This document shows, in pieces, positions 7,912 through 59,455 of a DNA stretch of 64,000 nt (the first letter of the stretch is position 1; each line of letters begins with the position of its first letter). The notes under the pieces are model-generated. The model saw only the letters and a program-made list of their open reading frames with translations. It ran no database searches and had not been told where the DNA came from. Where the stretch lies: the NCBI GenBank assembly GCA_963801355.1, contig CAWDEM010000008.1, positions 1,984,001 to 2,048,000 on the forward strand, written 5' to 3'. Both the position numbers and the translations under genes were made by a program. The DNA comes from Ignavibacteriota bacterium. GTDB taxonomy: Bacteria > Bacteroidota > Ignavibacteria > UBA10030 > UBA6906.

Positions 7912-9441
7912 TTAATGCTTCTGCGAGAACCAGAGAGGGAGATACGTGCGGGCACCGTATCCCGGTATGGCCAGTACGTTATCCACTTCTGCTGAATTGT
8001 CCGGGCCGTCGAGTGACGACCAGTGATGATAGTATCCCGCCGCCTGCACGAAAACGGTCCTGTGCATCCCATTTGCGAGCGACGGGACCGGATAGGAGAG
8101 GAGGACCGTGTCTCCCATCAGAGATGTGAGATAGCTGTCGTCCCGGTTCGCAACGAGCGGGGTGCAATCCGCTCCCCTTGAACCGGTCGCTGTCGCTGCA
8201 CGTACCGTCACACACTTCACTGGCATGTCTATCGACTCATCCACCCCGATCTGGTCTATGCGCCAGAGATCTGCCGTGCATTCAAGTCGGACGCGGAGTA
8301 CGCGTGCCCCGGGAGAAGGTACCGGCACGACGAGGATCTGTTCCTTCAGCAACTCTTCACCGGAGTCCATGAACACACCGGCCTTCTGCCACTCCGTGCC
8401 ATCCCAGACACTGACATGGAGCAAGCCCTCGCGCAGGAGAAACCCGCGCATCTGGTTCCCCTTGGCGGGGTCGTGCTCCAGCCTTCGAATCCATTGGGCG
8501 TATCCGCTGCCGCAAAGCTCTGAAAGTCGGTTGAATGTGAAAGAGGGCAGGAGCGTATTTTGTCCTCGCATCAGCAACTTCACCGATCCGGAGTTGCTCT
8601 TCAACTGGAACTCCGCCTCGAGCCGGTCGGTGAATTCCTCGGAATCGCCCTCCGACCCAACGTGCTTTTGACTTTCCCACAGGAGCCCGTCAGGTTCCCT
8701 CACAACTTCAAGCACCGACCCGGCGTTTCCATCGACACACTTCACGGGAGGCAGCAACGACGTAACGGTGTGGAACACTCCATCGGCTGAAGCCAGGACC
8801 TGAACATCATCCTGAACATCGACAGCGGAGAGTGTGAGTTCATTCACATAGTCTGTCTCCAGCCGCTCATTCATCAGTTTGATCAGATATTCGCCGTTGG
8901 ACGGCTCGATGTGCTCCAGGCGGTCGATCACCCTCCGTTCAGCGCCTTTATATATAGAGCCGGCAAAGGTCTCAGACGAAAGGACGAATCGGGATCCATC
9001 GAATGCGTAGACGAATGGACATGACCGAGTTTGTGGGTATGTAATATGATCAGTTGCCTCAAGGCCGTTTGTCGTCTGGAAGGCCGTTGCTACGAGACCG
9101 ACGGTTGAGCCGACGAGGCCAGCAAATACCACGGATTTGAAGAAATTGCCCTCTTTCAGATAAAGGTAGTCGATGGAATCGAGCGGGATTTGTCCGTCAT
9201 ATACAACATCCTCACCCTTCTGTAGCAGGCCTGCGAATTCCAATGTGCTATCCCTGAGAGTGTAGCGATCCAACCTGTATTCAGAACCATCGCGTGTGAT
9301 CACCACGAGCGGCTGCTGTTCTACACGCGGGCTGAGGTCAGAACGATTTGTTACCTCCCGGTACGTGTAGAGATAGGAACAGCCGGACATCGCCAGGAGT
9401 GCAGCAACGCTGGCAGCGACAACGAGATTCTGGATCATCAT
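7912..9441 (-). CDS. Hypothetical lipoprotein with SCPFVY motif
   Basis: Lipobox LLAMSGC; RSCPFVYAFDG motif; 509-aa ORF coupled to the upstream gene by an ATGA overlap. Confidence 0.65.
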   Translation of the reverse strand: MMIQNLVVAASVAALLAMSGCSYLYTYREVTNRSDLSPRVEQQPLVVITRDGSEYRLDRYTLRDSTLEFAGLLQKGEDVVYDGQIPLDSIDYLYLKEGNFFKSVVFAGLVGSTVGLVATAFQTTNGLEATDHITYPQTRSCPFVYAFDGSRFVLSSETFAGSIYKGAERRVIDRLEHIEPSNGEYLIKLMNERLETDYVNELTLSAVDVQDDVQVLASADGVFHTVTSLLPPVKCVDGNAGSVLEVVREPDGLLWESQKHVGSEGDSEEFTDRLEAEFQLKSNSGSVKLLMRGQNTLLPSFTFNRLSELCGSGYAQWIRRLEHDPAKGNQMRGFLLREGLLHVSVWDGTEWQKAGVFMDSGEELLKEQILVVPVPSPGARVLRVRLECTADLWRIDQIGVDESIDMPVKCVTVRAATATGSRGADCTPLVANRDDSYLTSLMGDTVLLSYPVPSLANGMHRTVFVQAAGYYHHWSSLDGPDNSAEVDNVLAIPGYGARTYLPLWFSQKH

Positions 9442-10205
9442 GGCGTTGGCCCTCCTGAAAAGTGAAACAGGATTCTTGCGCCAGCCGAGAAACTGGAGAA
9501 ATTGGCGCTGCCGCGGTGGGAATTGGACGTGGAAGGCTGCACAAGATAGTAGGACCCGTCCAGAATCACCGAAAAATCCTCTATGAGTTCCAACTCCACC
9601 CCTCCACGAAGAAATCCCCCAAACTGCTGAGCCTCCATGTTGACCCCGCTGAGAATCCTGCCATTCCCCAGGGCGGCGTCATATTTCGCAGCGACGGTCG
9701 TACGGAAGAAGACAATCCCGGGACCGACGAAGCACTGGAAGAAGTTGTTGCCGGCAAACGACGGCATGTAGTATATGCCCAAGGTGCCCGCATAGATCCT
9801 GCTCTTCTCCTCGAAATTCCATCCACCTTCAAGATTCACCCGGAACTTCGAGGAGAAATCTATGCCGAATGAGACCCACATGAGCGGCGATGGAGTGAGT
9901 GTCAGAATGCCCTTGCCGACCTCAATCTCTCGCTTGAGATAGCTCTCCTCCCTGTCTCTCAACACTTGCTGAAGCCCATCAAAGTTTGGGCTGTAGCTTG
10001 TGATCCCGATTGTTCCGAACAGGTGCGGGTAGAAGCGCTTCTCGACGCGATCATGCCGGAATGCGTGGGGCAAGAATTCCGACTGCTCGCGAGATGCTCC
10101 TGCCACCGTTCCGGGACCTCTTTTGAGAGAGTCTCCCTTGCTGTATTGTGCATTTGCAGGAAACATCGCCGCACAGAGGAGGAGAAAAAGAAGGAGTGTT
10201 CGCAT
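9438..10205 (-). CDS. Exported protein, probable outer-membrane beta-barrel
   Basis: Signal peptide; alternating amphipathic strands; terminal FSAGARILFHF. Confidence 0.6.
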   Translation of the reverse strand: MRTLLLFLLLCAAMFPANAQYSKGDSLKRGPGTVAGASREQSEFLPHAFRHDRVEKRFYPHLFGTIGITSYSPNFDGLQQVLRDREESYLKREIEVGKGILTLTPSPLMWVSFGIDFSSKFRVNLEGGWNFEEKSRIYAGTLGIYYMPSFAGNNFFQCFVGPGIVFFRTTVAAKYDAALGNGRILSGVNMEAQQFGGFLRGGVELELIEDFSVILDGSYYLVQPSTSNSHRGSANFSSFSAGARILFHFSGGPTP

Positions 10206-10420
10206 CGCGCACCTCTATTTCAAAAAGCATCACCCACCAATCTGGCCGCTTCCTCTTGCATCAGGAATCACATGCAAATGTAGCCCGCGGCTCCGGCTTC
10301 CATGTCACGGAAATGTCAAAGGACTTACATATTCTGTTTGGGGAGTACAAGTGGCCTTCGGATGTCCCCCTGGCAGGAAGGTCAGGCTAAAAAGTCCCAG
10401 AATCAAGCCTGGGGAAAACC

Positions 10421-10485
10421 TCAGGCTTTTTTGTAAGGCTTTCTTGTCAGGGAAAAAACTCAGGCTATTTTGTCAGGCTTTTTTC
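10421..10485 (+). repeat. Five tandem degenerate 13-mers (consensus TCAGGCTTTTTTG)
   Basis: Units at 10421, 10434, 10447, 10460, 10473; another in-phase TCAGGCT at 10382. Confidence 0.8.
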
Positions 10486-10516
10486 TATGTCCCAGGCTTC
10501 ATTTTATGTCCAATAC

Positions 10517-10533
10517 TTGACGAATCTTTGACA
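10517..10533 (+). promoter_or_regulatory. TTGAC-N6-TTGAC direct repeat (OmpR/PhoB-type box and/or -35 element)
   Basis: TTGACGAATCTTTGACA, 11-bp spacing, about 55 nt upstream of the UbiA gene. Confidence 0.45.
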
Positions 10534-10587: not shown

Positions 10588-11547
10588 ATGGAATCTCAAA
10601 TCACCACCCTCCGCGCTATGTGGATCACCATGCGCCCGTATCTGCTATTCGTTTCAGGGATTACGGGTATCGCCGGAATGGCGCTCAGCTCCACTACATC
10701 GGCTTTGCCGCTCTTCTCTGTATTCATCGCGTCATTCTTTGCCTACGGCTTTGGCCAGGCACTCACCGATTGCTTCCAGACCGACACCGATTCGATCTCT
10801 GCCCCTTACCGGCCGCTCGCAGCCGGTAAAGTCTCGCGCACGGCCATTCTCGTCATGAGCCTCCTCGGCCTCACAGCATGCGTCACCATTCTGGCCCTCA
10901 GAAATCCCTGGAACCTCGCCATCGGTCTCACAGGCGCCGCTGGACTCGCAACGTATACCACATTCAAACGGCGCTGGTGGGGTGGACCCTGGTACAATGC
11001 CTGGATCGTGGCCGGTCTTTGTGTCATGGGATTTCTCGGCGCAAACGGCGAAACACCGGCCCTGTTTCCGGCCGCCTTTCTCCCTATGCTTGCCACCGTC
11101 TTCTTCGGCTACGCCAACTTCGTCCTTTCAGGATATTTCAAGGACATCCGGGCTGATGCTGCCACCGGGTACTTGACATTTCCCGTGACCTTCGGGCGCC
11201 GGCCAGCCGCGATCGCCAGCGACCTTCTCGCCGTGCTCTTCCTGGCCTCGTCGGTCTGGGTCGCCATCATTGTGCTGGGCTCGACACAGCCCGAATCTTC
11301 TCATTTTTGGGCGCTGATCTTCGCCGTCCCCGGTGTCACGTATCTCGTGACTGCACAGATCCGGCTCCACCGGAATCGCACGGATCAGGAGGCATACGCG
11401 CCAATCCTCCGCGTGGTCCACGCATACATACTTGTCCTTTCTGCGCTGGCCTCGCTGCTGCATCCGGGATGGACTGTACTGCTTGTCATCCACTACACTC
11501 TCTTTGTTTTCGTTCTCTCCCGCCGCCCGGAGGTATCACAGATATGA
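10588..11547 (+). CDS. UbiA-family prenyltransferase (DGGGP/chlorophyll synthase-like)
   Basis: MRP start; variant Asp-rich motif TDCFQTDTD..RPLAAG; second motif KDIRAD..GYLTFPV.FG; many TM helices; GAGGAG RBS. Confidence 0.85.
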   Translation: MESQITTLRAMWITMRPYLLFVSGITGIAGMALSSTTSALPLFSVFIASFFAYGFGQALTDCFQTDTDSISAPYRPLAAGKVSRTAILVMSLLGLTACVTILALRNPWNLAIGLTGAAGLATYTTFKRRWWGGPWYNAWIVAGLCVMGFLGANGETPALFPAAFLPMLATVFFGYANFVLSGYFKDIRADAATGYLTFPVTFGRRPAAIASDLLAVLFLASSVWVAIIVLGSTQPESSHFWALIFAVPGVTYLVTAQIRLHRNRTDQEAYAPILRVVHAYILVLSALASLLHPGWTVLLVIHYTLFVFVLSRRPEVSQI

Positions 11548-12470
11548 TGATTCTGCTCAATCCACGGGCAGCGGGAGGAAAGGCGCCGGAAAAATGGCGC
11601 AGGATCTCTGCAGTCCTCCCACCCCACCGGGAGAGAATTGAATTTTGTTTTCTGAATTCGCACACGGACGTGGACGAGCTCGTGGAAAGAGCTGCCAAGC
11701 AGGGAGAATTGCACTATGTTGCCGCCGGAGGGGACGGGACAGTCAATGCTGTGGTCAACGCCCTCATGCGCCTTCCAGACGGACTGCGCAAGCGGGTTGT
11801 GTTCGGGGCCGTAGGACTGGGTTCCAGCAACGACTTTCACAAGCCTTTTGACACCGACCATACCATCGAAGGTGTCCCTGCAAGGTTGAACTTCGCGCGT
11901 CCAACATGGCGCGATGTCGTCCGCGTGGGAACCTCATTCAACGGCCAATCGTCTGTGCACTATTTCCTGATCAATGCAAGTGCAGGTATTGCAGCCGAAG
12001 GGAATGCCCTTTTCAACAAACCGGATTTCCTTCTGGCATGGTTGAAGATGCATGCTACGCCGCTGGCGATCCTGTATGCTGCGCTTCGTGCACTTGCATT
12101 CCACCGGAACCGTCCGCTCACCATCGAATCACCGGGGCATCCGGCGCAGCAATACCGCCTGACAAATCTCGGCATCGTCAAGAATCCTCATTTCTCGGGC
12201 TCACTGCGCTACGATATGCCGGCTCTCTATGACAACGGCAGCATGGGCGTGTTCGTAGCAGAAGAGATGAACCTGTGTGAACGCATTCGTCTCCTCCGGG
12301 CCCTATCATGTGGCGACTTCGGCCGCCTTGCGAAAACGCACACATGGCAGGCTTCTCATTTGACCATTGCAGCTCCGTCATGCTTTCCCCTGGAGCTTGA
12401 CGGTGAAATCCATCAGGCCAGTCGCGCCGAATTTTCCGTATTGCCCCGAATCCTACAGGTGTGCTCATGA
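11544..12470 (+). CDS. Diacylglycerol/sphingosine kinase family (YegS/DgkB-like)
   Basis: LNPRAAGG, AAGGDGTVN, LGSSNDF, LELDGE motifs; ATGA overlap with the UbiA stop. Confidence 0.9.
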   Translation: MMILLNPRAAGGKAPEKWRRISAVLPPHRERIEFCFLNSHTDVDELVERAAKQGELHYVAAGGDGTVNAVVNALMRLPDGLRKRVVFGAVGLGSSNDFHKPFDTDHTIEGVPARLNFARPTWRDVVRVGTSFNGQSSVHYFLINASAGIAAEGNALFNKPDFLLAWLKMHATPLAILYAALRALAFHRNRPLTIESPGHPAQQYRLTNLGIVKNPHFSGSLRYDMPALYDNGSMGVFVAEEMNLCERIRLLRALSCGDFGRLAKTHTWQASHLTIAAPSCFPLELDGEIHQASRAEFSVLPRILQVCS

Positions 12471-13519
12471 TGCAACAGATACATGAAAATAGCTTCATCG
12501 CCCGTCTGGCATCATTCCTGCCTCATCAGCCGGCTCAGCTGAACGGTCTCCAGGAAAGCGATGCCGAGTTAATACGATTGCCCGGGGATGCACATCACAT
12601 CCTCGCCGTCACCACAGACGCAATAGTTGAAGAAATCGAGGCCGGTCTCTATGCCGACCCCTACCTCATCGGCTGGATGACCGTGATGTCAAATCTGAGC
12701 GATCTCGCGGCCGTCGGCGCGGAATCGATCGGACTCCTCGTGGCTGAGACACTCCCGCACGATGCTGCCGAGGAGGATCTCATAGCCCTCCAGACTGGGA
12801 TCCGCGATGCGTGCGTACGGTGTGGCACCTTCGTCCTGGGAGGAGACACCAACTTCAGCGACAGCTTCCGTACGACGGGAACGGCAATGGGGCTGATAAC
12901 GAATGGTTCACCTCTTATGCGCGTCCGATGTGCACCGGGCGAGATCCTGTACTGTACCGGCCGCCTCGGCACCGGGAATGCCTACGCCGCTCGCCAGCTC
13001 TCCGGAGACACACATCCAAATCCCACACTTTATCGCCCGGTCGCCCGCCTGCGGGAAGGCCTCTCTCTCCGCTCCGTTGCTTCCACCTGCATGGATTCCA
13101 GTGACGGCCTGTTTGCATCGCTCGATCAGCTCGGGCGGCTCAACAACTGCGGATTTCAATTGGAGATCGGGTGGGAGAACCAAATAGCGGATGAGGCGTC
13201 ACGTTTCGCAATGAGTTCCGGCCTGGATCCCTGGATGCTCTTTGCCGGTCCTCACGGAGAGTTCGAGCTGGTGTTCACAGTCCCGGAACCCCTTGTCGCG
13301 ACATTGCATCTGGCCGCCGCCAGGGCGGGATGGACTCCCATCCGGCTTGGTGTTGTGAGCGAAAACGCCGGTATCGGTCTGGGAGACTGGGGTCATTTTG
13401 ACCCGGAAGCCCTTGCTGCAATCAGAAACCACCATCTTCGTAGTAGTGCTGAAGTCCGCGCATTTCCTCGTTTTTTGGCAGTTCTGGCGGAAGGATGCAG
13501 GAATTCGACTGAAGGATGA
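12467..13519 (+). CDS. ThiL/AIR-synthase superfamily kinase (divergent thiamine-monophosphate kinase-like)
   Basis: TTDAIVE, SNLSDLAAVGA, VLGGDTN, MDSSDGL, GEFELVFT; ATGA overlap. Confidence 0.82.
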   Translation: MMQQIHENSFIARLASFLPHQPAQLNGLQESDAELIRLPGDAHHILAVTTDAIVEEIEAGLYADPYLIGWMTVMSNLSDLAAVGAESIGLLVAETLPHDAAEEDLIALQTGIRDACVRCGTFVLGGDTNFSDSFRTTGTAMGLITNGSPLMRVRCAPGEILYCTGRLGTGNAYAARQLSGDTHPNPTLYRPVARLREGLSLRSVASTCMDSSDGLFASLDQLGRLNNCGFQLEIGWENQIADEASRFAMSSGLDPWMLFAGPHGEFELVFTVPEPLVATLHLAAARAGWTPIRLGVVSENAGIGLGDWGHFDPEALAAIRNHHLRSSAEVRAFPRFLAVLAEGCRNSTEG

Positions 13520-13586
13520 CAAAACGGTGACATCTCCCCGCCCCCCATGGCGTAACTTGCAGTAGTTACACAACGGGAGATCGAAC

Positions 13587-14906
13587 ATGAAGACCGATGG
13601 TGTCTATCAGGGTGGAGAGAATTTCGACCTACGCGACGTCCTGCTGAAAGGACGATCGCTTCCCCTTTCCGAGCGAACCGCCTTTTTCCAGAGTTTCCTG
13701 CAGGATGTGAGGCAGCGTGAAGAAAACCTCTGTATGCGGTGCCTCACCTCGCCCTCAGACCGCGAAGTCACGATTCTGGATCCCTCGTCAGGTACCGAAC
13801 GGAAGATGCTCATGTTCGGCTCAAACAACTATTTGGGCCTTGCCACACACCCACATGTCATCCGGCAGACGGCAGCGGCGGTGCAGAGGTATGGCGCGGG
13901 TTTGGGCGGGCCGCCACTCCTCAACGGATATACCGCGCTGCACCGGGAGCTCGAAGAGCGCCTCGCCGCACTGAAGGGAACAGAGGATGCGATGATTTAC
14001 TCGAGCGGTTATGGCGCAAATGTCGGCCTGGTGTCCGGGTTGACGGGAAAGTCGGATATCATATTGTACGACGCCTACAGCCATGCGTCCTTCTGCGATG
14101 GCATTGCACTGTCCGGTGCACAATCGTTTCTCTTCTCGCACAACGATCTCTCGCATCTGACCATGTTGCTGGATCGTGCCCGCACCCGTCCGCATAACGA
14201 CATCTACGTCGGCGTGGAAGGTGTCTATTCGATGGATGGGGATCTGGCGCCGCTGAACAGAATCCTCGAGCTCTGTGATGCCTATGGGGCACATCTGATG
14301 CTTGATGACGCTCACGGCACAGGGGTGTTGGGAGGACACGGAAGAGGCAGCGCCGAACAGGCCGGGGTGGAAGGCCGTATTCCGATGACGATGGGAACAT
14401 TCAGCAAAGCATTCTCGGCCACGGGAGGATTCGTGGCTGCAAGCAAAGCAATCATCGATTACCTCAGGTACTTTGCGCGGTCGTATATGTTCTCTGCCTC
14501 GTTGCCGCCCGCAACGGTCGCAACGGTCATCGCCGGATTGGATGTCCTGGAACGTGAACCTGAAAGACTCCTGCGTCTCCACGAGAACGTAACATATGCC
14601 GCACAGCACCTCAGGAGGATGGGATTTGCCACTCCCGCGCAATCGGCAATTCTCCCTCTTCGCGTGCCGCAGGGGATGGACATTCGTCAGGCTTCCAGGG
14701 TATTCCATGAGAGGGGTATCTTCGTCAACTCTATCGAGTACCCTGCTGTCCCCGTATCCCAGCAGCGATTCCGCATCAGCATGATGGCAACGCACACGCA
14801 CGAGGATATTGACCGCCTGCTCGCGGTTGTCGAAGAAGTCTGGTCACTCCAGCGCCATGACATGAGGGAGGTTGCAGATGAAGCACATCAGCGCAATGCC
14901 GCATGA
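13587..14906 (+). CDS. PLP-dependent alpha-oxoamine synthase (serine palmitoyltransferase/AONS family)
   Basis: FGSNNYLGL, SHASFCDG, EGVYSMDGD, DDAHG, GTFSKA (PLP Lys), FSASLPP, YPAVP..RFRIS. Confidence 0.9.
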   Translation: MKTDGVYQGGENFDLRDVLLKGRSLPLSERTAFFQSFLQDVRQREENLCMRCLTSPSDREVTILDPSSGTERKMLMFGSNNYLGLATHPHVIRQTAAAVQRYGAGLGGPPLLNGYTALHRELEERLAALKGTEDAMIYSSGYGANVGLVSGLTGKSDIILYDAYSHASFCDGIALSGAQSFLFSHNDLSHLTMLLDRARTRPHNDIYVGVEGVYSMDGDLAPLNRILELCDAYGAHLMLDDAHGTGVLGGHGRGSAEQAGVEGRIPMTMGTFSKAFSATGGFVAASKAIIDYLRYFARSYMFSASLPPATVATVIAGLDVLEREPERLLRLHENVTYAAQHLRRMGFATPAQSAILPLRVPQGMDIRQASRVFHERGIFVNSIEYPAVPVSQQRFRISMMATHTHEDIDRLLAVVEEVWSLQRHDMREVADEAHQRNAA

Positions 14907-16308
14907 TCGGAAGAAACTCCTGATCATTGTCCTCTTTCAAAATCTTGGAGAAGACAACCCGTACTACGCACAGAGTCCTGCGCCGCCATTGCCCGGGATT
15001 CTCCTGGCTGCTCTCACGCCGGATATTGTGGACATCGAAGTCCTGCACGAGATGGTCCGCCCGATCGATTACAGCACCGATGCTGATTTCATCGCGCTCA
15101 GTTTCATGGACTACCTTTCGCCACACGCATACGACGTGGCTGCCCGGTTCCGGGCAATGGGAAAGGTTGTGGTCGGCGGAGGGAAATACGCGTCCACGTT
15201 TCCTGATGAAGTACAACCGCACTTTCATGCAATCCTCGTGGGAGAAGCACAGGAAGTGTGGCCGCAGATGGTCAGCGATATGGTCAACGGCACGCTCAAG
15301 GAACGGTACGAGGCGTCGGCATCACCGTCACTCGAGAATATACCCCCGCCCCGCTACGACCTTGTCGAGAAAGTGTATGCGACGCCCATCGTCACGGAAG
15401 CCACGCGAGGCTGCCCGCATCCCTGCACATACTGCCAGCTGAACATCAAGCGGATGCCCTTCCGCCAACGCCCGATTGCGGACGTCGTCCGTGACCTTTC
15501 AGCGACACAAGGCCTGCCGTGGTACAAGCGGAAAATGGCGATGCTATTGGATAACAATCTCGGCGGGGATCTTACCTACGCCAAGCAGCTGTTGCGTGCA
15601 ATTGCAGGGCTCCGGCTCTGGGGACTGGGCGTGCAGTTCAGCATCGAGTGCCTGCGGGATGATGATTTCATCGAGGCCCTGGCAGAGGCACGCTGCCGCA
15701 TGGCATTCATCGGCATGGAATCTCTTGAACCGAAGAGTCTCGCCGCCGTACAAAAGCGACAGAACAACGTCATGGAGTACCGGTCGATGTTTGAGCGGCT
15801 CCATCGGCGGGGAATACTGACATTTACCGGGTACATGTTTGCACTCGACGAAGACACGACGGAATACTACGACCGGCTCCCCGCACTTCTTGAAGAGGTC
15901 GGGACAACCGTGATCCTGCCGTCCATCGCCATCCCGCTGTACGGCACACCGCTGTACAGGACGGTCGTCGGCGAAGGACGTCTTGTTGACCGGGACCTGT
16001 CGCATTACGAGGGTGACCACATCGTATTCCGGCATAAGCATCTGAGCGAAACTCAGATCCATGAAGCGTATGCCCGGGTCACGATGGGCTTCTACGGCTG
16101 GAAGAACATTCTGAGCCGCTGGGCAAGGTTCATGGGAAAGCAGGAGAAACGGGGATCATGGCGCGCATTTGTCCTCCAACTTCTCATTCTCACATTCATT
16201 TACACGAAGCTGTCGATATTCCAGCGGCACCATGCATTGGTAAGAATCACAGGTGCAAGGAAAGAGGCGGAACCAGCAAGGAAGCAGGAAGAAAAGTTGG
16301 CGGCGTAG
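14878..16308 (+). CDS. B12-binding-domain radical SAM enzyme
   Basis: Cobalamin-binding-like N-terminus (VVVGG..A..P..V..GEA); RGCPHPCTYC; FIGMES; GTPLY. Start could alternatively be 14896. Confidence 0.88.
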   Translation: MKHISAMPHDRKKLLIIVLFQNLGEDNPYYAQSPAPPLPGILLAALTPDIVDIEVLHEMVRPIDYSTDADFIALSFMDYLSPHAYDVAARFRAMGKVVVGGGKYASTFPDEVQPHFHAILVGEAQEVWPQMVSDMVNGTLKERYEASASPSLENIPPPRYDLVEKVYATPIVTEATRGCPHPCTYCQLNIKRMPFRQRPIADVVRDLSATQGLPWYKRKMAMLLDNNLGGDLTYAKQLLRAIAGLRLWGLGVQFSIECLRDDDFIEALAEARCRMAFIGMESLEPKSLAAVQKRQNNVMEYRSMFERLHRRGILTFTGYMFALDEDTTEYYDRLPALLEEVGTTVILPSIAIPLYGTPLYRTVVGEGRLVDRDLSHYEGDHIVFRHKHLSETQIHEAYARVTMGFYGWKNILSRWARFMGKQEKRGSWRAFVLQLLILTFIYTKLSIFQRHHALVRITGARKEAEPARKQEEKLAA

Positions 16309-16414
16309 GTCCGACCCCAACCGATTGATGATTGTCACTAGTCTATTGACTATTGACAAGTGGTCCGGGTCTGACCCCTTGTGCATGGGGAAGACATAGG
16401 GGTTTGACCCCTAT
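16308..16414. repeat. Three GGGTCTGACCCC-like REP-type palindromes in a convergent intergenic gap
   Basis: GGTCCGACCCC 16308, GGGTCTGACCCC 16367, ATAGGGGTTTGACCCCTAT 16396. Confidence 0.55.
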
Positions 16415-17091
16415 TTTTGAAATTTGTACCCTGCTGTATGCACCGTGATAATGTGCCTGGGTTTCGTCGCATCGTCCTCGAGTTTCTTCCGGAGAGCCAG
16501 GATATAATTGTCGACCGTCCGTGTCGTGGGAAAGGTTTCGTACCCCCACACCTGGTTCAGCAGCATGCCACGCGTGACCACTTCTCCCTCGTGCTGCACG
16601 AGAAACTTCAGCACTGAGTATTCGCGCACGGAGAGCTTTACCTTCCTTCCTTTCCGCGTCGCCTCCTGTCGGACGAAGTCGACTTCCACCTCTCCGAATG
16701 AGCACGTTTCAATGTCCTTCGTCAATCCCCCCTTACGCCTCAGAAGGGCCCTGACCCGGGCGAGCAGTTCGCGGACGGAAAACGGCTTCGTCATATAGTC
16801 ATCGGCACCCATTTCCAGCCCGAGCACCTTGTCCATCTCCATCCCCTTGGACGTGAGCATCATAATCGGGGTGGATACGCCGCTCCCGCGCAGCTCTTTG
16901 CACACATCCTCCCCGTTGATGTCCGGAAGACCCAGATCCAGGATGATCAGGTCGACGTGTTCATTGCGTCCCAGGGCAAGACCGCGTGCGCCGTTGGGAG
17001 CCGTCAGAACCGTGTAGTGTTCCTTCTCCAGAACGTCCTGCAGCCCCAGCTGAATGGAAGCATCATCTTCAACGATGAGTATGGTCTTCAT
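16411..17091 (-). CDS. OmpR/PhoB-family response regulator
   Basis: ILIVEDD, LDLGLP, GADDYMTKPF; winged helix RTVDNYILALRKKLE..GYKF. Confidence 0.95.
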   Translation of the reverse strand: MKTILIVEDDASIQLGLQDVLEKEHYTVLTAPNGARGLALGRNEHVDLIILDLGLPDINGEDVCKELRGSGVSTPIMMLTSKGMEMDKVLGLEMGADDYMTKPFSVRELLARVRALLRRKGGLTKDIETCSFGEVEVDFVRQEATRKGRKVKLSVREYSVLKFLVQHEGEVVTRGMLLNQVWGYETFPTTRTVDNYILALRKKLEDDATKPRHIITVHTAGYKFQK

Positions 17092-29569: not shown

Positions 29570-30544
29570 ATGCGATGCCCCTTTCTCCGCGAAGCACAGG
29601 TGAAGTCCTGTCGTGGTTCCGCCTTCCGCAAAATGATCGTCTGTGTGCCCGGTCAGGCGGATGCGGACCGCTGTACATCACCCGACTTTGTGAATTGTCC
29701 GGCTGCGCTGCCGCTCACCGATGCACATGCTCACGATTCACACTGTCCGTTCCTCCAGGAATCGCTGGTGCAGTACTGCGCCGCAGCATCCGTCACGAAG
29801 TACATCCCGTACAGCGAGGCGGAGCTCTCGCATTGCGGGACCGATAGTCACAAGTACTGTGAACTCTTTCTCACGCTTGCACACCCCGAGCGCGCAAGTT
29901 TCTCAACAACCGCTTCAGCCGGAACCGGGGCAGATGATTCTTCACCGGACTTCCTTGTGGAAGGCATCCGCGTGCCGGGGTGGCTCGGGTTTTCCCCCAA
30001 CCACATGTGGATCGATATCGACAGTGATGGACTCGTCCATATCGGCATCGACGCCTTTCTTGCTTCGATGCTTGACTCCATAGACCGCATCACCTTTCTG
30101 ACCACCGAAGGCATCCATCGTCCGACCGTGGTGCTGACCATTCACGGCGTCGATCTGCAGATGGTGTTCCCCCATCCGGTGCGCCTGAAGACTCCCAACC
30201 TGTACATCCGCACGCATCCCTTGACATTGTTGTCGGATCCGTATGCACTGGGATGGCTGTTTGAAGGAACTCTCGTCGGTGATGACCCCGCGACGGCTGC
30301 AGAGACGATGAGACGCGAGCTGCTTTCGGGGAGAGCCGCCGCCGGATGGATCGAATCGGAGATTCACCGGGTGTCACATATGGCTCATGCATTGTCTAAC
30401 GCTCCGGACCTCCAGGGAGAAGTTGCTATGGCCGACGGCGGCACCGTGGAACGGGGATTCATTCGACACTTGAACCGTGATGCCATCCTCCGCGTCTTCA
30501 ACGAGTTCTTTTCTCCGTTTGCAGAATGGAGGGATTTAAAGTGA
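29570..30544 (+). CDS. Cys-rich GcvH-like protein lacking the lipoyl lysine
   Basis: Duplicated CPFL.E..V..C N-domain; H-protein fold motifs HMWI..IGIDAF..SDPY..GWL; C-terminal MADGG. Confidence 0.75.
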   Translation: MRCPFLREAQVKSCRGSAFRKMIVCVPGQADADRCTSPDFVNCPAALPLTDAHAHDSHCPFLQESLVQYCAAASVTKYIPYSEAELSHCGTDSHKYCELFLTLAHPERASFSTTASAGTGADDSSPDFLVEGIRVPGWLGFSPNHMWIDIDSDGLVHIGIDAFLASMLDSIDRITFLTTEGIHRPTVVLTIHGVDLQMVFPHPVRLKTPNLYIRTHPLTLLSDPYALGWLFEGTLVGDDPATAAETMRRELLSGRAAAGWIESEIHRVSHMAHALSNAPDLQGEVAMADGGTVERGFIRHLNRDAILRVFNEFFSPFAEWRDLK

Positions 30545-31128
30545 GTGTGAAGGGTCCAATACTATTTTTGTGCGGAATTCTGGCATCCCTTGCCATTGGA
30601 TGGTTCGCGTTCCCCGCTGCCCTCTACCGGACCGAGGCGCAACCAATGCAATTCAACCATGCCATCCACACGGGCGAACAGAACAGCATGACCTGCGACA
30701 TGTGTCATGAGTTCGCAGAGAACGGCAGCTTCAAGGGCATTCCGGTTATCGCAAAGTGCGCTGAATGCCATTCCGCACCCATCGGTTCGACAGAGTCCGA
30801 GAGGATTCTCGTCGAACAGTACGTGACACCCCAGAGGGAAATCCCGTGGAAGGTCTATTCGCGCCAACCGGACAACGCGTATTTTCCGCACACGGTCCAT
30901 GTGAAAAGCGCAGAGATCACCTGCGACGTGTGCCACGGACCGCATGGTTCCAGCTCTTCGCTCCCCGCGTATCAAGTCAACCGTATCAGCGGGTATAGCA
31001 GGGACATCTGGGGAAGGAACATCTCGGGGATTCCCTCCCAGCCCTGGGAAGGCATGAAGATGGACCGGTGCGTGCGGTGTCATGCCGAGCGCCGGAGAGA
31101 CGACAGCTGCATTGATTGTCACAAGTGA
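30541..31128 (+). CDS. Membrane-anchored pentaheme cytochrome c (QrcA/ActA-like)
   Basis: N-terminal TM; QPMQFNH; CDMCH, CAECH, CDVCH, CVRCH, CIDCH. Confidence 0.9.
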   Translation: MSVKGPILFLCGILASLAIGWFAFPAALYRTEAQPMQFNHAIHTGEQNSMTCDMCHEFAENGSFKGIPVIAKCAECHSAPIGSTESERILVEQYVTPQREIPWKVYSRQPDNAYFPHTVHVKSAEITCDVCHGPHGSSSSLPAYQVNRISGYSRDIWGRNISGIPSQPWEGMKMDRCVRCHAERRRDDSCIDCHK

Positions 31129-31130
31129 AC

Positions 31131-32876
31131 ATGAAGAGATCCATGAAGATTACACGAAGAGAATTGCTGACGTTCGCGGGTGGATCGATCCTCGGCGCCC
31201 TGTTCACGCCCATCCCATGGAAGCTCCTGGACGATAGCTCGATTTGGACGCAGAACTGGTCACTGATCCCCGGTCTTCCCCGTGGCCCGGAGACATATAC
31301 CGCAACCCGATGCGCCATCTGTCCGGGGGGCTGCGCCGTCAGGGCCCGACGTATCAATGGGCAGCCCGTCACGCTTGCCGGCGTTCCCGCAGATCCGCTC
31401 AAGAGCGGAGCGCTCTGTCCCATGGGAATTGCCGGACATCATCTGGCATTCCATCCGCTGCGGCTACGTGATGCCTTCGCGTTCACCGGAAAGAGCCCGG
31501 ACGCAACGCTGGTTCCGATCGGCCTCGATGAAGTCGTATCGAAGGTCTCCCGGACCATTCGGGATCTATCGGCGGCGTCGATGCCAGGTGCCATCGCGAT
31601 TCTTGATCAACGGCCTGGAAGGGCGGTCTCCGGGCTCTACCGGGAGTTCATCGGGACGTGCCCGCAGGGAACCTACATCGTGGCCCCGGGATCTGAAGAA
31701 CCCACGCTGGCCGCTCTTCAAAGACTGTGCAATTTCAACGAGGCATTGCCCGGCTATGACCTCGAGAATACTCGGGTCATCCTGAGTTTTGGATCCGACC
31801 TGCTCGACGGGTGGAGCTCTCCGGGCCGCTTGACCGGTCTCATGCAGAACAGAAATCAGAACGGTCTGCAACTCATCCAGGCGGAAGGCGTCAAATCCCG
31901 CACCGCGCACCAGGCAAACACCTGGCTCCCCGTGATCCCGGGTACAGAGGGAACCCTTGCTCTCTCAATCGGCAACGTGCTTATCCGTGACGGTCTGCAT
32001 TCCCGGGACGTCGAGAAGGGGATCACTGATTTCCAGACATACAAGAAGCTTGTTGCCGGATTCCCGCCCGAGGCCGCTGCGGCTGCAACCGGCATCTCCG
32101 CTCAGGCAATCACAGCGACAGCGCACGCGCTCGCTTCCGGTCCATCAGTGGTCATGGCAGGGTGCAATCCTGCGGGCGGTCCGTTCGACCGGGCCACCGA
32201 GGTTGCGATTGCGGGACTCAACATACTCATCGGGAGCGTTGGCCGGAAAGGTGGCATCACTCTTTATGCCCGCACCCCTTCGGCACACGCATCAACCGTG
32301 CCGGCGGTCGCCCTGGCGGATGTCCCGGACCATTCCATCCGGCTGCTCTTGATCGACGGCGCCGAATCGGGAAATGTGTTCCCCGCGTCATTGCTCAAAC
32401 GGAAACTTACATCCGACGGCGGAACAGTAGTGCTCATGTCTCCGTATCTCGCTCCGCGATCAGGCAGTGCCGACTATTTGTTGCCGTCAGCTGCTGCATA
32501 TGAATCGACGGAAGAACTTTCCACCCCAACCGGTGCAACCCGATCTTCCTTTGCTCTCTCCCTCCCGCTGTTCAAGCAGTCCGAGAAGACTGTTGATCCC
32601 GTGGCATTCCTGGCGAAGCTCGCTGAGGCCGCCGGTCTTCCTCTGCCCGGAGCGACATCCTCGGAAGCCTGCCTCAAGCAGCGTGCCCACGATATCTGGG
32701 TTTCCAAACGAGGATCATTGACTACGGCGGCGGATTCTGCAGTGACCCCTGTACAGGGAATGTCGGGAGAAGAAGATTTGTGGAAGGGATTGTCGGAGGG
32801 AGAATGCTGGATTGACAGCGAAGATCAGCACCCGTCAGTCATTCCGAAGTTCGATCCTCGGTTCGATGACGCCTGA
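31131..32876 (+). CDS. Molybdopterin oxidoreductase-like subunit (QrcB/ActB-like), N-terminal part; apparent frameshift near 32850
   Basis: Tat motif ITRRELL; CAICPGGC...LCPMG Fe-S site; WLPVIPGTEG, ADYLLP. Ends before the molybdopterin dinucleotide-binding domain. Confidence 0.8.
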   Translation: MKRSMKITRRELLTFAGGSILGALFTPIPWKLLDDSSIWTQNWSLIPGLPRGPETYTATRCAICPGGCAVRARRINGQPVTLAGVPADPLKSGALCPMGIAGHHLAFHPLRLRDAFAFTGKSPDATLVPIGLDEVVSKVSRTIRDLSAASMPGAIAILDQRPGRAVSGLYREFIGTCPQGTYIVAPGSEEPTLAALQRLCNFNEALPGYDLENTRVILSFGSDLLDGWSSPGRLTGLMQNRNQNGLQLIQAEGVKSRTAHQANTWLPVIPGTEGTLALSIGNVLIRDGLHSRDVEKGITDFQTYKKLVAGFPPEAAAAATGISAQAITATAHALASGPSVVMAGCNPAGGPFDRATEVAIAGLNILIGSVGRKGGITLYARTPSAHASTVPAVALADVPDHSIRLLLIDGAESGNVFPASLLKRKLTSDGGTVVLMSPYLAPRSGSADYLLPSAAAYESTEELSTPTGATRSSFALSLPLFKQSEKTVDPVAFLAKLAEAAGLPLPGATSSEACLKQRAHDIWVSKRGSLTTAADSAVTPVQGMSGEEDLWKGLSEGECWIDSEDQHPSVIPKFDPRFDDA

Positions 32877-33294
32877 GCACTTCCAGGCACCGTCTGCATC
32901 GGTGAAACCGGCCAAGGGCACATTGAAGCTGATGCCTTTTGGCTGGAGGAACGCGACGATGACGGCCTCTGTGGCGCCGGTGCTCAGCAAGATCTTCCAG
33001 GAATCGCATCTCCGGAGTCTTGGCGGAAGAGTACACCTCAACCCCTCGACCATTGCCGCGAACGCGCTTGCGGACGGGGCCCGCGTGAAAATCAGCACAC
33101 AGTCCGGAACCGTGACAGCCGATGTCGTTGCCGATCCGGCGATCATTCCCGGTGTCATCCACGCCATCGTCGGTCCATCTCCCAACAACACCGCGCACAC
33201 GGATCAACCCGAGGCGGAGGGACTGCTCGGTCTGTGCGTTGTGGGTGCGGACGGTTCATGGAGAATCACTGAAGCAACGATTGCGAGAGCGTAA
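32851..33294 (+). pseudogene. C-terminal molybdopterin dinucleotide-binding domain of the QrcB-like subunit, in a shifted frame
   Basis: VHLNP..LADGARVKIST.SG....V..DPAIIPGVI; no convincing RBS; overlaps the upstream ORF end. Confidence 0.6.
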
Positions 33295-33298
33295 GAGA

Positions 33299-34048
33299 AT
33301 GGAACAGAGCGCAGAATCCAAATCCCGGTATGGCATGGTCATCGACCTTGACCGCTGCACAGGGTGCGGCGCGTGCATGGTCGCATGTGCGGTGGAGAAT
33401 AACGTTGCTCCGGCGGAACAGAAGGCGACGGATCGCACGGGCGACACCTGGTTGCGCGTCTACACGGTAACCAATGGCGAAGGATTCCCGTCGCTTGACA
33501 CGGTATTCATCCCGATGGGCTGCCAGCAATGTGATAATCATACACCGTGCGTCTCCGTCTGCCCGCAAAACGCCGTGGAACTGGACCACGCGACGGGCAT
33601 CGTTGCGCAGATCCCCCAGCGGTGTCTTGGATGCCGCTACTGCATGACGGCATGCCCGTACCATGCGCGATATTTCAACTGGTGGGATCCCCGGTGGCCG
33701 GAAGGCACAGAAACACTGCTCAATCCGGACGTTGCACCCCGCATGCGCGGTGTTGTCGAAAAGTGCAATTTTTGCCATGGGCGCCTTCATACGGCAAGGA
33801 CCAAAGCAGCAGCAGAAGGAAAAAAAGGAATCGAACCCGGCGACTACATCCCCGCCTGCGTTGAAAGCTGTCCCTCACAGGCAATCGTGTTCGGGGACCT
33901 TGCGGATGAGTCGAGCCCCGTTGCGCAGCTGAGCCGGAGCAGTGATGCATTTCAATTTCTTCCCAGACTCGGCACCGCGCCGAAGGTGTTCTATCACTCA
34001 GCGAGGGAATGGGTCCGGAACATGGCCGCACGGGTACCGACGGCGTAA
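33299..34048 (+). CDS. 4x[4Fe-4S] electron-transfer subunit (QrcC/NrfC-like)
   Basis: CTGCGACMVAC, CQQC...PCVSVCP, CLGCRYCMTACP, KCNFC...PACVESCP. Confidence 0.93.
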   Translation: MEQSAESKSRYGMVIDLDRCTGCGACMVACAVENNVAPAEQKATDRTGDTWLRVYTVTNGEGFPSLDTVFIPMGCQQCDNHTPCVSVCPQNAVELDHATGIVAQIPQRCLGCRYCMTACPYHARYFNWWDPRWPEGTETLLNPDVAPRMRGVVEKCNFCHGRLHTARTKAAAEGKKGIEPGDYIPACVESCPSQAIVFGDLADESSPVAQLSRSSDAFQFLPRLGTAPKVFYHSAREWVRNMAARVPTA

Positions 34049-44726: not shown

Positions 44727-47700
44727 CTACCGAAACACCACTTCAAGAAGCACTTCATTCCACCCTTCTCCCAATTCAGCCACGATGTTTCCGTCAGAGG
44801 GCAGCCCTCCCACACGACCATTGAGAGTGAGCCGGGTAATATCTCGGTTGCTTACAAGTGGCAACACTGTTCTCCCCACACCAGCGATCTTCATGGTGAG
44901 ATGGCCGGGTCCAGATTCCTGAGGCGTGATACTCGTGCCCGGGGTTGTGAACACCAGCGCAACGCCATCTCTGACAAGTACCTGCCTCAGGCTCCCTTCG
45001 GTGACCTCGAGCGGTACCTTCAAATCTTCGACCTCGAGGAGGACCCGCTTCGTATTGCCCGCCGATGTCCAATCCGTGTTCAAAAGAACGATCCTCTTCC
45101 ATCCCCCCGGACAATTGTAGACATGCCAATCGACATCGGTTGACTCACCGGTGATGCGCATTTCTGTGCGGAGAGTCGATGTGAGCTTCTGCAGCATGAG
45201 TGGGCGGAACGCGTCCAGCGATGCTGCTCCCCAGTACTCTCCGACTGTGAGCATCCACACCTTCCCCGCACCGATCCTATTCTCAACGAGGACGGGATGT
45301 CCGTCTTCATCAGCGGCCAGCACATGGGCGGTCGTTGTGCTCAACCTGAGACCGGGAACATGTTCCGCGGCACATGAGGAGCCATCAGCCCAGATGATTT
45401 GACGCATTTCCCCGCCGACATCTTGTATCCTGACTCCGCCGAGCGCAGTCAGATCCCCGCCCGCGTACCATTGGAAATCCTTCTTCTCCTTCAGGAAGTC
45501 GCGCGTCACATGCTTCGTACATTGCGCTGCACTTAATACAAGGTGCCCGCCATTCCGAACGTATGCGAGCAGCTTCGCATAAATCTCATCCGTCATCGTG
45601 TTCCACCCCGGGAGCACCAGAAGCCGATACTTCGAGAGTTTTTCCGGGGTTGCATCGATGGGAATCAGGTCAACCTGGCCATGCGGCGAGCCCCCGAAGA
45701 ACTGGCGGATCGATGTGGGATCTTGCAGCACGGGATAGAGCCACACTCCAGGCATGAACGCTCCCAACAACTCCCAGCCGCGTTCCGGTGTATCAAACTC
45801 CCAACTCGGCTTCTCCGGCCCGATCATCCCCCAGAACTTGGTTCTTGGAACATCAGGGTCCGACTGTAGTCCGCCGACGAGACAGTCATAGTTGCCTTGC
45901 AGAAATCCGATTCGCACATCCTCCTTGCCCAGATCGATGCTCGATGCGTAATGGTACAACTCCTGCATTTGTTTGCGTCGATTGAAGGTAAACGGATCAG
46001 AAAACGCGCGCGGGGCATCGTGGACGGCGTACAGGGCAAACTCTTCGTCATAGATCAATCTGGCACCATACAGCCACGCCTGCCAGAGCAGGATGAAGTT
46101 GCGCCGCTCAGTGGCATTGTCTGCCGGCACGCGTGGGATGTGGTTGGCATTGTGCACACCCCACAGGCTCTTATCGAATGCATACACCGCCCCGCGTTGA
46201 CTCGCGAACATGAGTGTCGAATGACCGGTCGGGGGTTCACTAAACACCAGCTGGACGCCGGCTTTATAGTCCAGGTGCGTAATCGGCAAGGCCTGACCGA
46301 GGATCTGAATCCCGCCGACCCGCCTCAGATATGCCTCTTCGCACTCGGGAAGCGTTCTGTCAGCCCGGCGCGCAATCGGCTCGGGGTCTCCCCAGCCGTA
46401 GATCAAATTGCTGCGTTCATGTCCATGGATACCCAGATAACTCTTGCCCAGGCGCGCGCGCAGGATCGCATCAGCAGAACGCGTGGGATCAGTAGACTCG
46501 ACGAGGCCGGCCTTGATGCCGTAGCGCACCATCATGTCGCACCAGCGATGATAGTCCTTCAACGTGTCCACAGTGTGCGCTTCCTCTATACGGAAGAGAA
46601 TGTAGTTCCCGGCCTCCTCCTCCCCCATCATCGTCAGAACACTGTCCACTTCGCCATTCTGCGGCGTGAGCGTGTTCTCATCATAGCCAATCCAGAAGGT
46701 AGGTTGCGGAGGAAGGGGTGGAAGCTGTCGCAGATTATCCTTGAGCGAGGGTGGAGGATCATTCACAAAGACGCGGTGCACAAGGACCACATAGCGGGCG
46801 CTACGATTCAGCAGCTGGATCCTGTTCTTCATCTCACGTAGGGATTTTCTAGGAACCGACACATACAGGTCTTGCATCTTCTGCACCATCCGGAATTTCG
46901 CAAAGAAGTGCCGCAAATCAGAACGGCAATCATTGATCGACACATGAAGGTCTATCCAATCGTCCATCACCTCAAGCCCACCCGTGGAATCCTTGGCCGC
47001 CATGAGTTGAAGATGGACGATGCAACTGTCACCCGCCAGTCGGCTGAAGTTCAGGATATCGAATCGGGTCGTGGATTGCCCTGATGCCGGGACTACCGCA
47101 CAATAGGTGCTCAGAAAATGCGCCTTGCCTCCCGAGAAGTCATCGGGCATGACAATGGCTCCTGCCTGATTCTTCCGGCGCAATCCTGCGAGATGCGATT
47201 TCCGCGACACGCGGATTCTCGGATCCTGCCCGAGGAAAACCACAATAGGCTGGCCTGAATAGTAACCCCCGCAATGGAATTCAAGAATTTCCTTCTCGAG
47301 CAGCCCGCCCAGTTGAAACGAAACAGTCCTGGACGTCGTGGCAATCGTCACATGCGTCGAGGAATCGCCTCTCACGCTGAAGCGTATACCTTCAGTCCCG
47401 TTTCCCGAGCCGGGAACAATTTCGCTTTTCCATTCAGGTGTCGTCAACCGGTGGACATATTCCCGGGCGCATCCGCTCCATCCCCTCGCCCAGTCCGTTC
47501 GCGCATAGAGCAGCTTGTCGATCCAGATCAATTCGCCACGTTCAACGCGAAGGCTTCCGTCCCAGTGAAAGGCTTCGTTGCTGACCGGCGAATACGAGAA
47601 TGATTTCCCGAATGTGACCGAGACTACGTAGTCCTTCTGGCTCTCGCCCCTGACCATGGGATCTCCCCGGCTCTCCGCGGAGGGATGTGTTGCGGAGTGC

Positions 47701-49772: not shown

Positions 49773-50102
49773 GATTGCGGGTTCGACATTGAGGAGTTGA
49801 TGGGTGTGCTGGAAAGATACCCTCAAGGAGGAGCAAACGCAAGATGTAGCACAGGGGTTGCCAGCGTGGAAAGATCCTGATCGAGCGGCGCAAAAAAGAA
49901 GCGCCCGGACATCGCTCTGCCCGGGCCGATTGAAAGACACAGGTACCAACTTCCATACAATCGTGGATTGGAGGCTGCGTTGACTACGACGCAAAATACT
50001 TAGAGAAGACCTCATCGCATTGCCGGGCAAGGGAGAAGTCCTTCTCGGTAAGCCCTCCTCCATCATGCGTCGTGAGTCTGGCCTCCTATGTATCCTTTTA
50101 TG

Positions 50103-59335: not shown

Positions 59336-59408
59336 GGCGTATTTCCTCAAACGGTTCGCTTGTAGTGAATGAACTTCACTACTATATACTTTCTGGCTTA
59401 CCTGCCAT

Positions 59409-59455
59409 TGTCGGATCGATGTAAATGATTGTCAGTCTCTTGTCAGGAAATGTCT
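59409..59455 (-). promoter_or_regulatory. Five helically phased TGTCA-like repeats (OmpR/PhoB-type sites)
   Basis: Half-sites at 59409, 59420, 59430, 59441, 59451 (spacing 11/10/11/10); -10-like TATAGT at 59381-59386 on the minus strand. Confidence 0.65.

Follow-up and report, generated by a model that had tools for sequence, protein, structure and literature searches.

A five-gene cluster of Ignavibacteriota and relatives as a candidate membrane-lipid pathway with two kinases and a variant UbiA enzyme

A stretch of 64,000 nucleotides from an Ignavibacteriota bacterium (GCA_963801355.1, contig CAWDEM010000008.1, positions 1,984,001 to 2,048,000; this whole stretch is called the window) contains a cluster of five genes at positions 10588-16308. 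They code for an enzyme of the UbiA superfamily, a lipid kinase of the DAGK/YegS type, a kinase resembling the thiamine-monophosphate kinase ThiL (ThiL-like), an alpha-oxoamine synthase (AOS) and a B12-type radical SAM enzyme. Most likely, the cluster builds or modifies a membrane lipid and does not belong to ordinary thiamine or biotin metabolism. The reading favored here is a dedicated and widely conserved membrane-lipid pathway, in which a relay of two kinases leads to the UbiA enzyme and two promoters are co-regulated. It is put forward tentatively, at somewhat less than an even chance.

All five open reading frames (ORFs) lie on the plus strand (Table 1) and three of the four junctions, as read from the DNA, overlap, in agreement with the initial annotation. 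The UbiA and lipid kinase genes share 4 nt (ATGA). The overlap of the lipid kinase gene with the ThiL-like gene amounts to 10 nt if GTG 12461 is the start and to 4 nt if it is ATG 12467. The overlap between the AOS and radical SAM genes is 29 nt if translation starts at ATG 14878, behind a GGGAGG, and 35 nt if it starts at TTG 14872. The ThiL-like and AOS genes are separated by 67 nt. Downstream, the cluster is bordered by a convergent pair of histidine kinase and response regulator genes (19648-16411, minus strand). None of the five proteins reaches the cut-off of any curated family in NCBIfam, and all of them appear, from their sequences, to keep the motifs expected of active enzymes. Furthermore, a Pfam scan of the 41 other ORFs of the window revealed no thi or bio family, and a search of the 64 kb with Rfam revealed neither a thiamine pyrophosphate (TPP) nor a cobalamin riboswitch, the sole match being one tRNA. 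This supports the earlier statement that no bio or thi genes are adjacent.

Relatives of the cluster were identified with a profile of the ThiL-like family, counting one genome per species, which yielded at least 522. The census of loci covers the best 80 of these, all of them metagenome-assembled genomes (MAGs), and the presence of genes was scored by tblastn, using the proteins of the window as queries; loci flanked on either side by 6 kb or more, of which there are 39, are termed complete. According to the record titles, the loci carry labels beginning with Ignavibacteri (24) or Gemmatimonad (22), generic Bacteroidota (16), Saprospiraceae (4), Eubacteriales (3), unclassified (3) and Calditrichia/Caldithrix (2), with one locus each from Lentimicrobiaceae, Chlorobiaceae, Zixibacteria, Planctomycetota, Akkermansiaceae and Dehalococcoidia, where the Eubacteriales and Dehalococcoidia labels may reflect mis-binning. 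The triple of UbiA, lipid kinase and ThiL-like genes is contiguous and co-oriented in 76 of the 80 loci. In the other four the contigs end less than 1300 bp upstream, so that this core is present in 76 of 76 assessable loci, and likewise in 39 of 39 complete ones. The closest locus, L001, shares 81-93% amino-acid identity with the window proteins. The lipid kinase and ThiL-like genes overlap by a median of 9 nt (75 pairs), and translational coupling of the core genes extends to all assessable loci. All five genes occur together in 33 of the 80 loci. Thus, the gene set singled out by the initial annotation is conserved, and its recurrence is more than chance.

The ThiL-like protein matches PF00586 (AIRS N-terminal domain) with 70 bits, which indicates a PurM-superfamily fold. 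Its best-scoring model is TIGR01379, against which it reaches 147.6 with a cut-off of 184.15. Six homologues from clusters of different phyla score 148.6-171.9, and when 32 of the 150 best representatives from a search in 1.84 billion proteins were sampled, none attained the cut-off (top score 183.1). In total, this holds for all 39 family members tested. E. coli ThiL, the positive control, scored 398.2 on TIGR01379 and 647.1 on PRK05731; the distinction from canonical ThiL was judged by the cut-offs of hidden Markov models, with the E. coli enzyme as the one canonical comparator. In a search of the PDB, ThiL structures match at 82 bits at most. E. coli ThiL and seven cluster sequences agree without exception at D34, D53, S80-D81, G127-T130, R154 and D212/S214/D215, and we take these to be the Mg/ATP-binding residues and the catalytic serine of ThiL. 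On the other hand, IVEEIxxGLY stands where E. coli ThiL has VAGNHF, and a C-terminal extension of about 25-30 residues is present. About 200 clusters at 50% identity match the protein at E 1e-30 or better, and databases label the homologues thiamine-monophosphate kinase. According to a passage in PMC6416309, the only known reaction of ThiL is the conversion of a phosphate monoester (monophosphate) to a diphosphate.

The lipid kinase matches DAGK_cat (62.3 bits) and YegS_C (40 bits), both above the Pfam cut-offs, and its GGDG motif (G62, G63, D64, G65) is invariant in 42 sequences. Against TIGR00147, the model for YegS/Rv2252/BmrU, it scores 65.7, below the cut-off of 118.65. In the PDB its profile matches DgkB, BmrU, YegS, acylglycerol kinase and sphingosine kinase 1.

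For the UbiA enzyme, PF01040 is found with 93 bits (cut-off 34.2). Here, the first aspartate motif reads TDCFQxDTD (TDCFQTDTD in the window) in place of NDxxDxxxD, and three acidic residues remain. T60, D61, D66, T67 and D68 are present in all 52 UbiA sequences from the loci and Q64 in 51, whereas the second motif, KDIxAD, is kept, with K185, D186, A189 and D190 in 52 of 52. The aligned comparators show NDIFDIEID in digeranylgeranylglyceryl phosphate (DGGGP) synthase (DGGGPS) and NDFYDRDID in ChlG. Among proteins of solved structure, DGGGP synthase (6m31, found by the family profile at E 1.9e-12) and chlorophyll synthase are the nearest. Nevertheless, the best-scoring NCBIfam models, which are of the DGGGPS type, lie far from their cut-offs (64.7 versus 269, 57.9 versus 296 and 45.6 versus 353). 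UbiA enzymes use diphosphate donors, normally allylic diphosphates or phosphoribosyl pyrophosphate (PRPP). The altered diphosphate-binding motif hints at a non-standard diphosphate donor.

For the pathway itself we infer every substrate as well as the order of the steps. The lipid kinase would phosphorylate a lipid alcohol, which might be an isoprenoid alcohol or an amino alcohol made by the cluster, and the ThiL-like enzyme would add a second phosphate to give a lipid diphosphate. The variant UbiA enzyme would take this diphosphate as alkyl or prenyl donor and release pyrophosphate, resulting in an O-linked lipid of the ether or ester type. AOS and radical SAM enzyme would act as an accessory module for the synthesis and tailoring of the partner, an amino-ketone or amino-alcohol lipid. 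Since ThiL turns a monophosphate into a diphosphate, UbiA enzymes use diphosphate donors and the three genes form a coupled core coding for a membrane enzyme and two soluble kinases, a relay from alcohol via phosphate and diphosphate to UbiA is the simplest reading. That the nearest solved UbiA relatives, DGGGPS and chlorophyll synthase, are O-prenylating enzymes is counted in its favor, as are the lipid-type neighbors of the variant loci described below (SDR, DUF3419 protein with GNAT, fatty-acid hydroxylase, exporter and acyl-CoA ligase). The initial annotation had already proposed that both kinases act in succession to supply UbiA, starting from a long-chain (amino)alcohol and leading to a sphingoid/ether lipid. 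The relay fits the invariant core. A sphingoid base, however, cannot be the universal kinase substrate, since the AOS is an accessory that is absent from 10 of the 39 complete loci, all of which have the core.

The AOS matches PF00155 (Aminotran_1_2) with 193 bits and contains a TFSKA motif, the lysine of which is presumably the one binding pyridoxal phosphate (PLP). Its scores on NCBIfam models stay below the cut-offs given in brackets: bioF 375 (426), SPT-CFB 357 (640), KBL 341 (460), SPT-beta 324 (500), ALAS 261 (339) and, as the lowest of the AOS models, the CqsA type with 200 (428). None of six homologues passes any AOS-equivalog cut-off either, which makes it zero of seven including the window protein. 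Among structures in the PDB, SPT (8guh) is the best match with 270 bits, followed by KBL with 250 and BioF with 220 bits, and the cysteate acyltransferase structure 28eh scores below SPT and KBL. Judged by these scores, the AOS appears to be roughly equidistant from SPT, BioF and KBL. By the NCBIfam cut-offs, the cluster therefore contains neither a canonical bioF nor a canonical thiL.

The radical SAM enzyme matches PF04055 (45.3, cut-off 29.5) with its CxxxCxxC motif present as CPHPCTYC, and all 38 sequences compared have C181, C185 and C188. The B12-binding domain PF02310 is seen at 21.1, below the cut-off of 32.1, next to a weak match to DUF4070. The family profile finds the class B radical SAM methyltransferases TsrM, CysS and TokK weakly (E 1e-6 to 1e-3) and over the radical SAM core only; they have the CxxxCxxC core in common with it and possibly an N-terminal B12-like domain. 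All named NCBIfam families, including HpnJ, BchE, the ladderane type and PhpK, score 56 or less, and none comes near its cut-off. Nevertheless, the family is highly conserved, with 54-86% identity to the window protein across phyla (37 sequences).

Around the core, the loci differ in a modular way. Besides the AOS, found in 29 of the 39 complete loci, a small protein (family F8) occurs in nine, and both are never found together (0/80). This protein has about 135 core residues, four hydrophobic segments (4-TM) and the conserved motifs FExAFPxAD and LGxLDxxFY, is without a Pfam match and adjoins UbiA in 24 of the 80 loci, among them L047, L053, L058, L059, L060, L063, L065, L071, L073 and L076. 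Similarly, 31 complete loci have the radical SAM enzyme and six a DUF3419 protein, usually together with a GNAT protein, again never in the same locus (0/80). GNAT was found in 6 loci and a short-chain dehydrogenase/reductase (SDR) in 34 of 80, including 16 complete ones; the window has no gene for SDR, F8, DUF3419 protein or GNAT. Next to the cluster, 29 of 80 loci (20 of 39 complete ones) have a homologue of the response regulator and 25 of 80 one of the histidine kinase.

Loci of the Gemmatimonadota type have the radical SAM gene, often accompanied by an SDR gene, in divergent orientation upstream; in them, the 4-TM protein takes the place of the AOS and the two-component system is missing. 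No AOS gene was detected within 10 kb of these loci, and it may lie elsewhere in those genomes. The Saprospiraceae variant, noted at L052 2940-3722 and 9260-10603 and at L061 8955-9737, displays the order ThiL-like, AOS, DUF3419, (GNAT), kinase, UbiA, with a gene of the fatty-acid-hydroxylase family in front (L052, L061), LytTR/BtsR-type regulators upstream and a PhoD-like phosphatase gene after it on the opposite strand (L052). Furthermore, genes for a DevA/DevC-like exporter are present in L009 (permease and ATPase) and L049 (ATPase), and an acyl-CoA ligase gene at L031. These occasional neighbors point to lipids.

A shared upstream repeat links the core to the AOS. The direct repeat TGAC-N7-TGACA has four matches in the window versus 0.58 expected, a number reached in none of 100 shuffles, and an alignment of 10 regions upstream of UbiA shows TGAC and TGACA without variation. 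Across the 80 loci and the window, a same-strand copy 20-250 nt upstream is found for 22 of 72 UbiA and 26 of 48 AOS sources, and for none of the kinase (0/77), ThiL-like (0/81), radical SAM (0/51), regulator (0/16) and histidine kinase (0/18) genes; in total, the repeat matches 79 times in 1.2 Mb on both strands. Direct repeats with an 11-bp period are what regulators of the OmpR/PhoB family bind. Therefore, the adjacent regulator would control two units, UbiA-kinase-ThiL-like and AOS-radical SAM, and the recurrence of the repeat ahead of UbiA and AOS in related loci argues for their joint regulation. Probably the adjacent OmpR-type regulator and histidine kinase switch both promoters via these repeats, where we infer the pairing of regulator and site. 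The core of the histidine kinase resembles PnpS, PhoR and WalK in a generic way only. Its N-terminal half is long, hydrophobic and, by eye, multi-spanning, which suggests a membrane-embedded sensor. This co-regulation is in line with the part of the initial annotation in which the AOS contributes to a hybrid sphingoid/ether lipid that the radical SAM enzyme tailors; as a general product of the cluster such a hybrid is not supported, the AOS being absent from the Gemmatimonadota-type loci.

Upstream of UbiA, about 100 bp (10395-10500) are absent from nine aligned relatives. This segment contains repeated CAGGCT...TTGTCAGG units and a terminator-like hairpin at 10405-10428. A second pair of OmpR-type regulator (59573-60256, minus strand) and histidine kinase (60286-62445, minus strand) is encoded in the window, with the fourth copy of the repeat just downstream of it and next to the gene of a 1256-aa PD40/WD40/TPR protein (55580-59350, minus strand). 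The two OmpR-type regulators of the window are 50% identical, and a binding motif or a regulon may be common to them.

Several observations weigh against the proposed pathway. A saturated alkyl diphosphate, as would arise from a saturated amino alcohol, is not the usual allylic donor of UbiA enzymes, while an ordinary prenol as donor would make the kinases redundant, given that prenyl diphosphates are made de novo. The lipid kinase is the least conserved member, with about 31-48% identity outside the closest relatives and 32-43% in a second comparison. As stated, about one quarter of the complete loci are without the AOS. A type 2 isopentenyl diphosphate (IPP) isomerase and a short-chain prenyl diphosphate synthase are encoded divergently from UbiA in three of the 80 loci, which look like one lineage (Table 1); the isomerase of L041 reaches 397 bits on TIGR02151 (cut-off 281). 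Exact matches to the repeat are absent from many loci. The regulator matches no characterized one: as PhoB it scores 196.8 versus 296, and as Bacteroidetes PhoB 164 versus 270. Finally, no clean gene fusion was found among 70, 75, 48 and 34 adjacent pairs. One apparent Rosetta-stone fusion, P0354 (726 aa), contains UbiA, DAGK-type and ThiL-like parts in this order, all of them truncated, on a single metagenome contig of 6992 bp. It was not counted; a copy of the core operon that is decaying or was mis-assembled may explain it.

The main competing explanation follows the logic of DGGGPS. Here, UbiA would use an ordinary C15-C20 prenyl diphosphate to O-prenylate a phosphorylated backbone, for which the lipid kinase makes the phosphate handle, as carried by geranylgeranylglyceryl phosphate (GGGP), and the ThiL-like enzyme would turn the phosphate of the product into a diphosphate head group or an activated intermediate. 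The outcome would be a hybrid prenyl-ether phospho- or pyrophospholipid. This is unlikely. In its favor, DGGGP synthase is the closest solved UbiA relative, the isoprenoid genes of L039, L041 and L050 lie beside UbiA and, according to an excerpt of PMC6431249, DGGGPS-like genes occur in all 12 surveyed phyla of the FCB (Fibrobacteres-Chlorobi-Bacteroidetes) group. These points are set against the low scores on the DGGGPS models and the altered first aspartate motif, the lack of any PcrB-type gene for GGGP synthase (GGGPS) among the window ORFs scanned with Pfam, and the restriction of the isoprenoid genes to apparently one lineage. To our knowledge, lipid pyrophosphates have few precedents as end products, which also counts against it. 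The version closest to the initial annotation, in which a sphingoid or capnine-type base made by the AOS is phosphorylated twice, serves UbiA as alkyl donor and gives a hybrid tailored by the radical SAM enzyme, is improbable. The shared repeat, the SDR of 34 loci, which would be able to reduce the keto group, and the membership of sphingosine kinase in the kinase family are in its favor, and an alcohol made without phosphate would indeed need kinases. However, the core is universal and the AOS is not, being even mutually exclusive with the 4-TM protein; the window is devoid of an SDR gene, the SPT equivalog models are missed, and C1 of a saturated sphingoid base is not allylic.

Two further explanations are less likely than both the proposed pathway and the DGGGPS-like logic. 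In analogy to CqsA and CqsS, the AOS might make an amino- or hydroxy-ketone, which is then modified and prenylated to a lipophilic signal or secondary metabolite and sensed by the adjacent histidine kinase. The regulator pair beside 20 of the 39 complete loci, the long hydrophobic sensor region and the presence of autoinducer synthases in the AOS family would fit. Nevertheless, a signal is quite improbable, as the CqsA-type model is the one farthest down in the AOS ranking (200 versus 428), loci of the Gemmatimonadota type have neither the two-component system nor AOS, and the accessory genes of variant loci point to bulk lipid and export. The remaining explanation, that housekeeping thiL and bioF (or kbl) genes lie beside unrelated genes by coincidence, would account for the database name of the homologues and for TIGR01379 as best model. 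It is largely refuted and very improbable, because no ThiL-like protein out of 39 reaches the cut-off that E. coli ThiL exceeds with 398, every one of the 76 assessable loci, whatever the phylum, links the gene to those of UbiA and lipid kinase, TPP riboswitch and thi or bio neighbors are lacking in the window, and the AOS stays below the bioF, KBL, SPT and ALAS cut-offs in seven of seven cases.

No description of the cluster or of its gene combination was found in the open-access full-text literature, supplements being outside this search, and to this extent the statement of the initial annotation that no such pathway has been described stands. The closest functional parallel of the proposed relay is the salvage route of plants and cyanobacteria, where phytol kinase VTE5 and phytyl-phosphate kinase VTE6 form a two-kinase route to a prenyl diphosphate; according to passages of PMC9782597, their families are related to dolichol kinase and COG1836, and the polyprenyl-phosphate kinase genes outside phototrophs are still unidentified. 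This salvage leads to the UbiA-type enzymes VTE2 and ChlG, i.e., it has the same logic of alcohol, mono- and diphosphate and use by the UbiA superfamily as proposed here. In contrast, the cluster kinases belong to the unrelated families DAGK_cat/YegS and PurM/ThiL, so that the likeness is functional only, and the three genes of the cluster are combined in one operon of non-phototrophic FCB and Gemmatimonadota lineages.

The second parallel is archaeal DGGGP synthase together with the DGGGPS-like genes of FCB bacteria, whose range matches that of the cluster. Their role without glycerol-1-phosphate (G1P) dehydrogenase was called unclear by Coleman et al. (2019; PMC6431249) in the sections concerned, and activity has, by the account in an extract of Villanueva et al. 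(2021; PMC7852524), been shown for Cloacimonetes enzymes only. The UbiA enzyme of the cluster differs from DGGGP synthase in its scores below the curated cut-offs, its TDCFQxDTD motif and the lack of a neighboring GGGPS gene. With ThiL, the ThiL-like protein shares the fold, the invariant residues and the proposed monophosphate-to-diphosphate chemistry, in contrast to the cut-offs missed by 39 of 39 proteins, the replaced VAGNHF segment, the C-terminal extension and a context free of thiamine genes. The bacterial routes to sphingolipids and sulfonolipids, with the starter enzymes Spt and CapB, a keto-reductase and a kinase for ceramide or sphingosine, are matched in type by AOS, by the SDR of many related loci, by a DAGK-family kinase and by the GNAT of six loci. 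Unlike in those systems, the AOS is below the SPT cut-offs and dispensable for the core, and the window lacks SDR and GNAT.

Table 1. Positions of the cluster genes, of adjacent genes and repeats in the window, and of isoprenoid genes in three related loci.
Feature	Position	Strand	Evidence or remark
UbiA-superfamily membrane transferase, 319 aa	10588-11547	+	PF01040
DAGK_cat/YegS-type soluble lipid kinase, 308 aa	11544-12470	+	PF00781 and PF19279
ThiL-like PurM-superfamily kinase, 352 aa	12461-13519 (alternative start ATG 12467)	+	PF00586; TIGR01379 below cut-off
Alpha-oxoamine synthase (AOS), 439 aa	13587-14906	+	PF00155
B12-type radical SAM enzyme, about 476 aa from ATG 14878	14878-16308 (ORF opens at TTG 14872)	+	PF04055
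OmpR/PhoB-family response regulator	16411-17091	-	Pfam domains; likely start is the methionine of MKTIL
Histidine kinase, 851 aa	17093-19648	-	Pfam domains GAF, HisKA and HATPase
255-aa protein with hydrophobic N-terminus	9438-10205	-	No Pfam match; divergent, upstream border of the cluster
TGAC-N7-TGACA repeat, reads TGTCA-N6-TGTCA on the plus strand	10303-10318	-	Divergent intergenic region; block conserved in the upstream alignment
Direct repeat TGACGAATCTTTGACA	10518-10533	+	70 nt before ATG of UbiA, promoter 1; probable response-regulator site
Direct repeat TGACAAAACGGTGACA	13517-13532	+	70 nt before ATG of AOS, promoter 2; probable response-regulator site
Fourth TGAC-N7-TGACA repeat	59430-59445	-	About 95 nt before the start of the gene at 55580-59350 (-)
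IPP isomerase and prenyl diphosphate synthase genes	L039 5020-7055; L041 5627-7665; L050 5734-7772		Ignavibacteria-type loci; L050 by ORF-family match

Two further regions of the window were noted. Adjoining genes at 30526-34048 code, according to Pfam, for multihaem cytochrome c7/c3-like, molybdopterin-oxidoreductase-like and 4Fe-4S dicluster proteins, and we take them to resemble a module of the alternative-complex-III type. An ORF of 1779 aa (44727-50066, minus strand) has a single recognized domain, located at the C-terminus and resembling a beta-galactosidase trimerization domain.

The family is widespread: the ThiL-like protein is encoded by at least 522 genomes, counted one per species. 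Among the 240 ThiL-like homologues listed no cultured host was recognizable, the organism names given being those of MAGs only. If the proposed pathway is true, the annotation as thiamine-monophosphate kinase would be wrong across several phyla, and reconstructions of the thiamine pathway for such MAGs would be affected. It would then represent a new lipid pathway in abundant bacteria of soil, sediment and sludge, and a new function for the PurM/ThiL fold. The ThiL-like family is a candidate for the polyprenyl-phosphate kinase outside phototrophs, a gap that is named in the passages of PMC9782597 cited above. Likewise, the cluster offers a testable answer on the role of the DGGGPS-like genes in FCB bacteria without G1P dehydrogenase, as raised in the sections of PMC6431249. 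In its boldest form, which is possible but rather unlikely, a ThiL-family lipid-phosphate kinase and a DAGK-type kinase would provide a non-canonical lipid diphosphate that the variant UbiA enzyme joins to an AOS-derived amino lipid. This would give an unrecognized class of ether-linked, possibly phosphorus-free membrane lipids in Ignavibacteriota, Bacteroidota, Gemmatimonadota and relatives, with a membrane-sensing two-component system as its switch, and would provide the orphan DGGGPS-like genes of the FCB group with a function.

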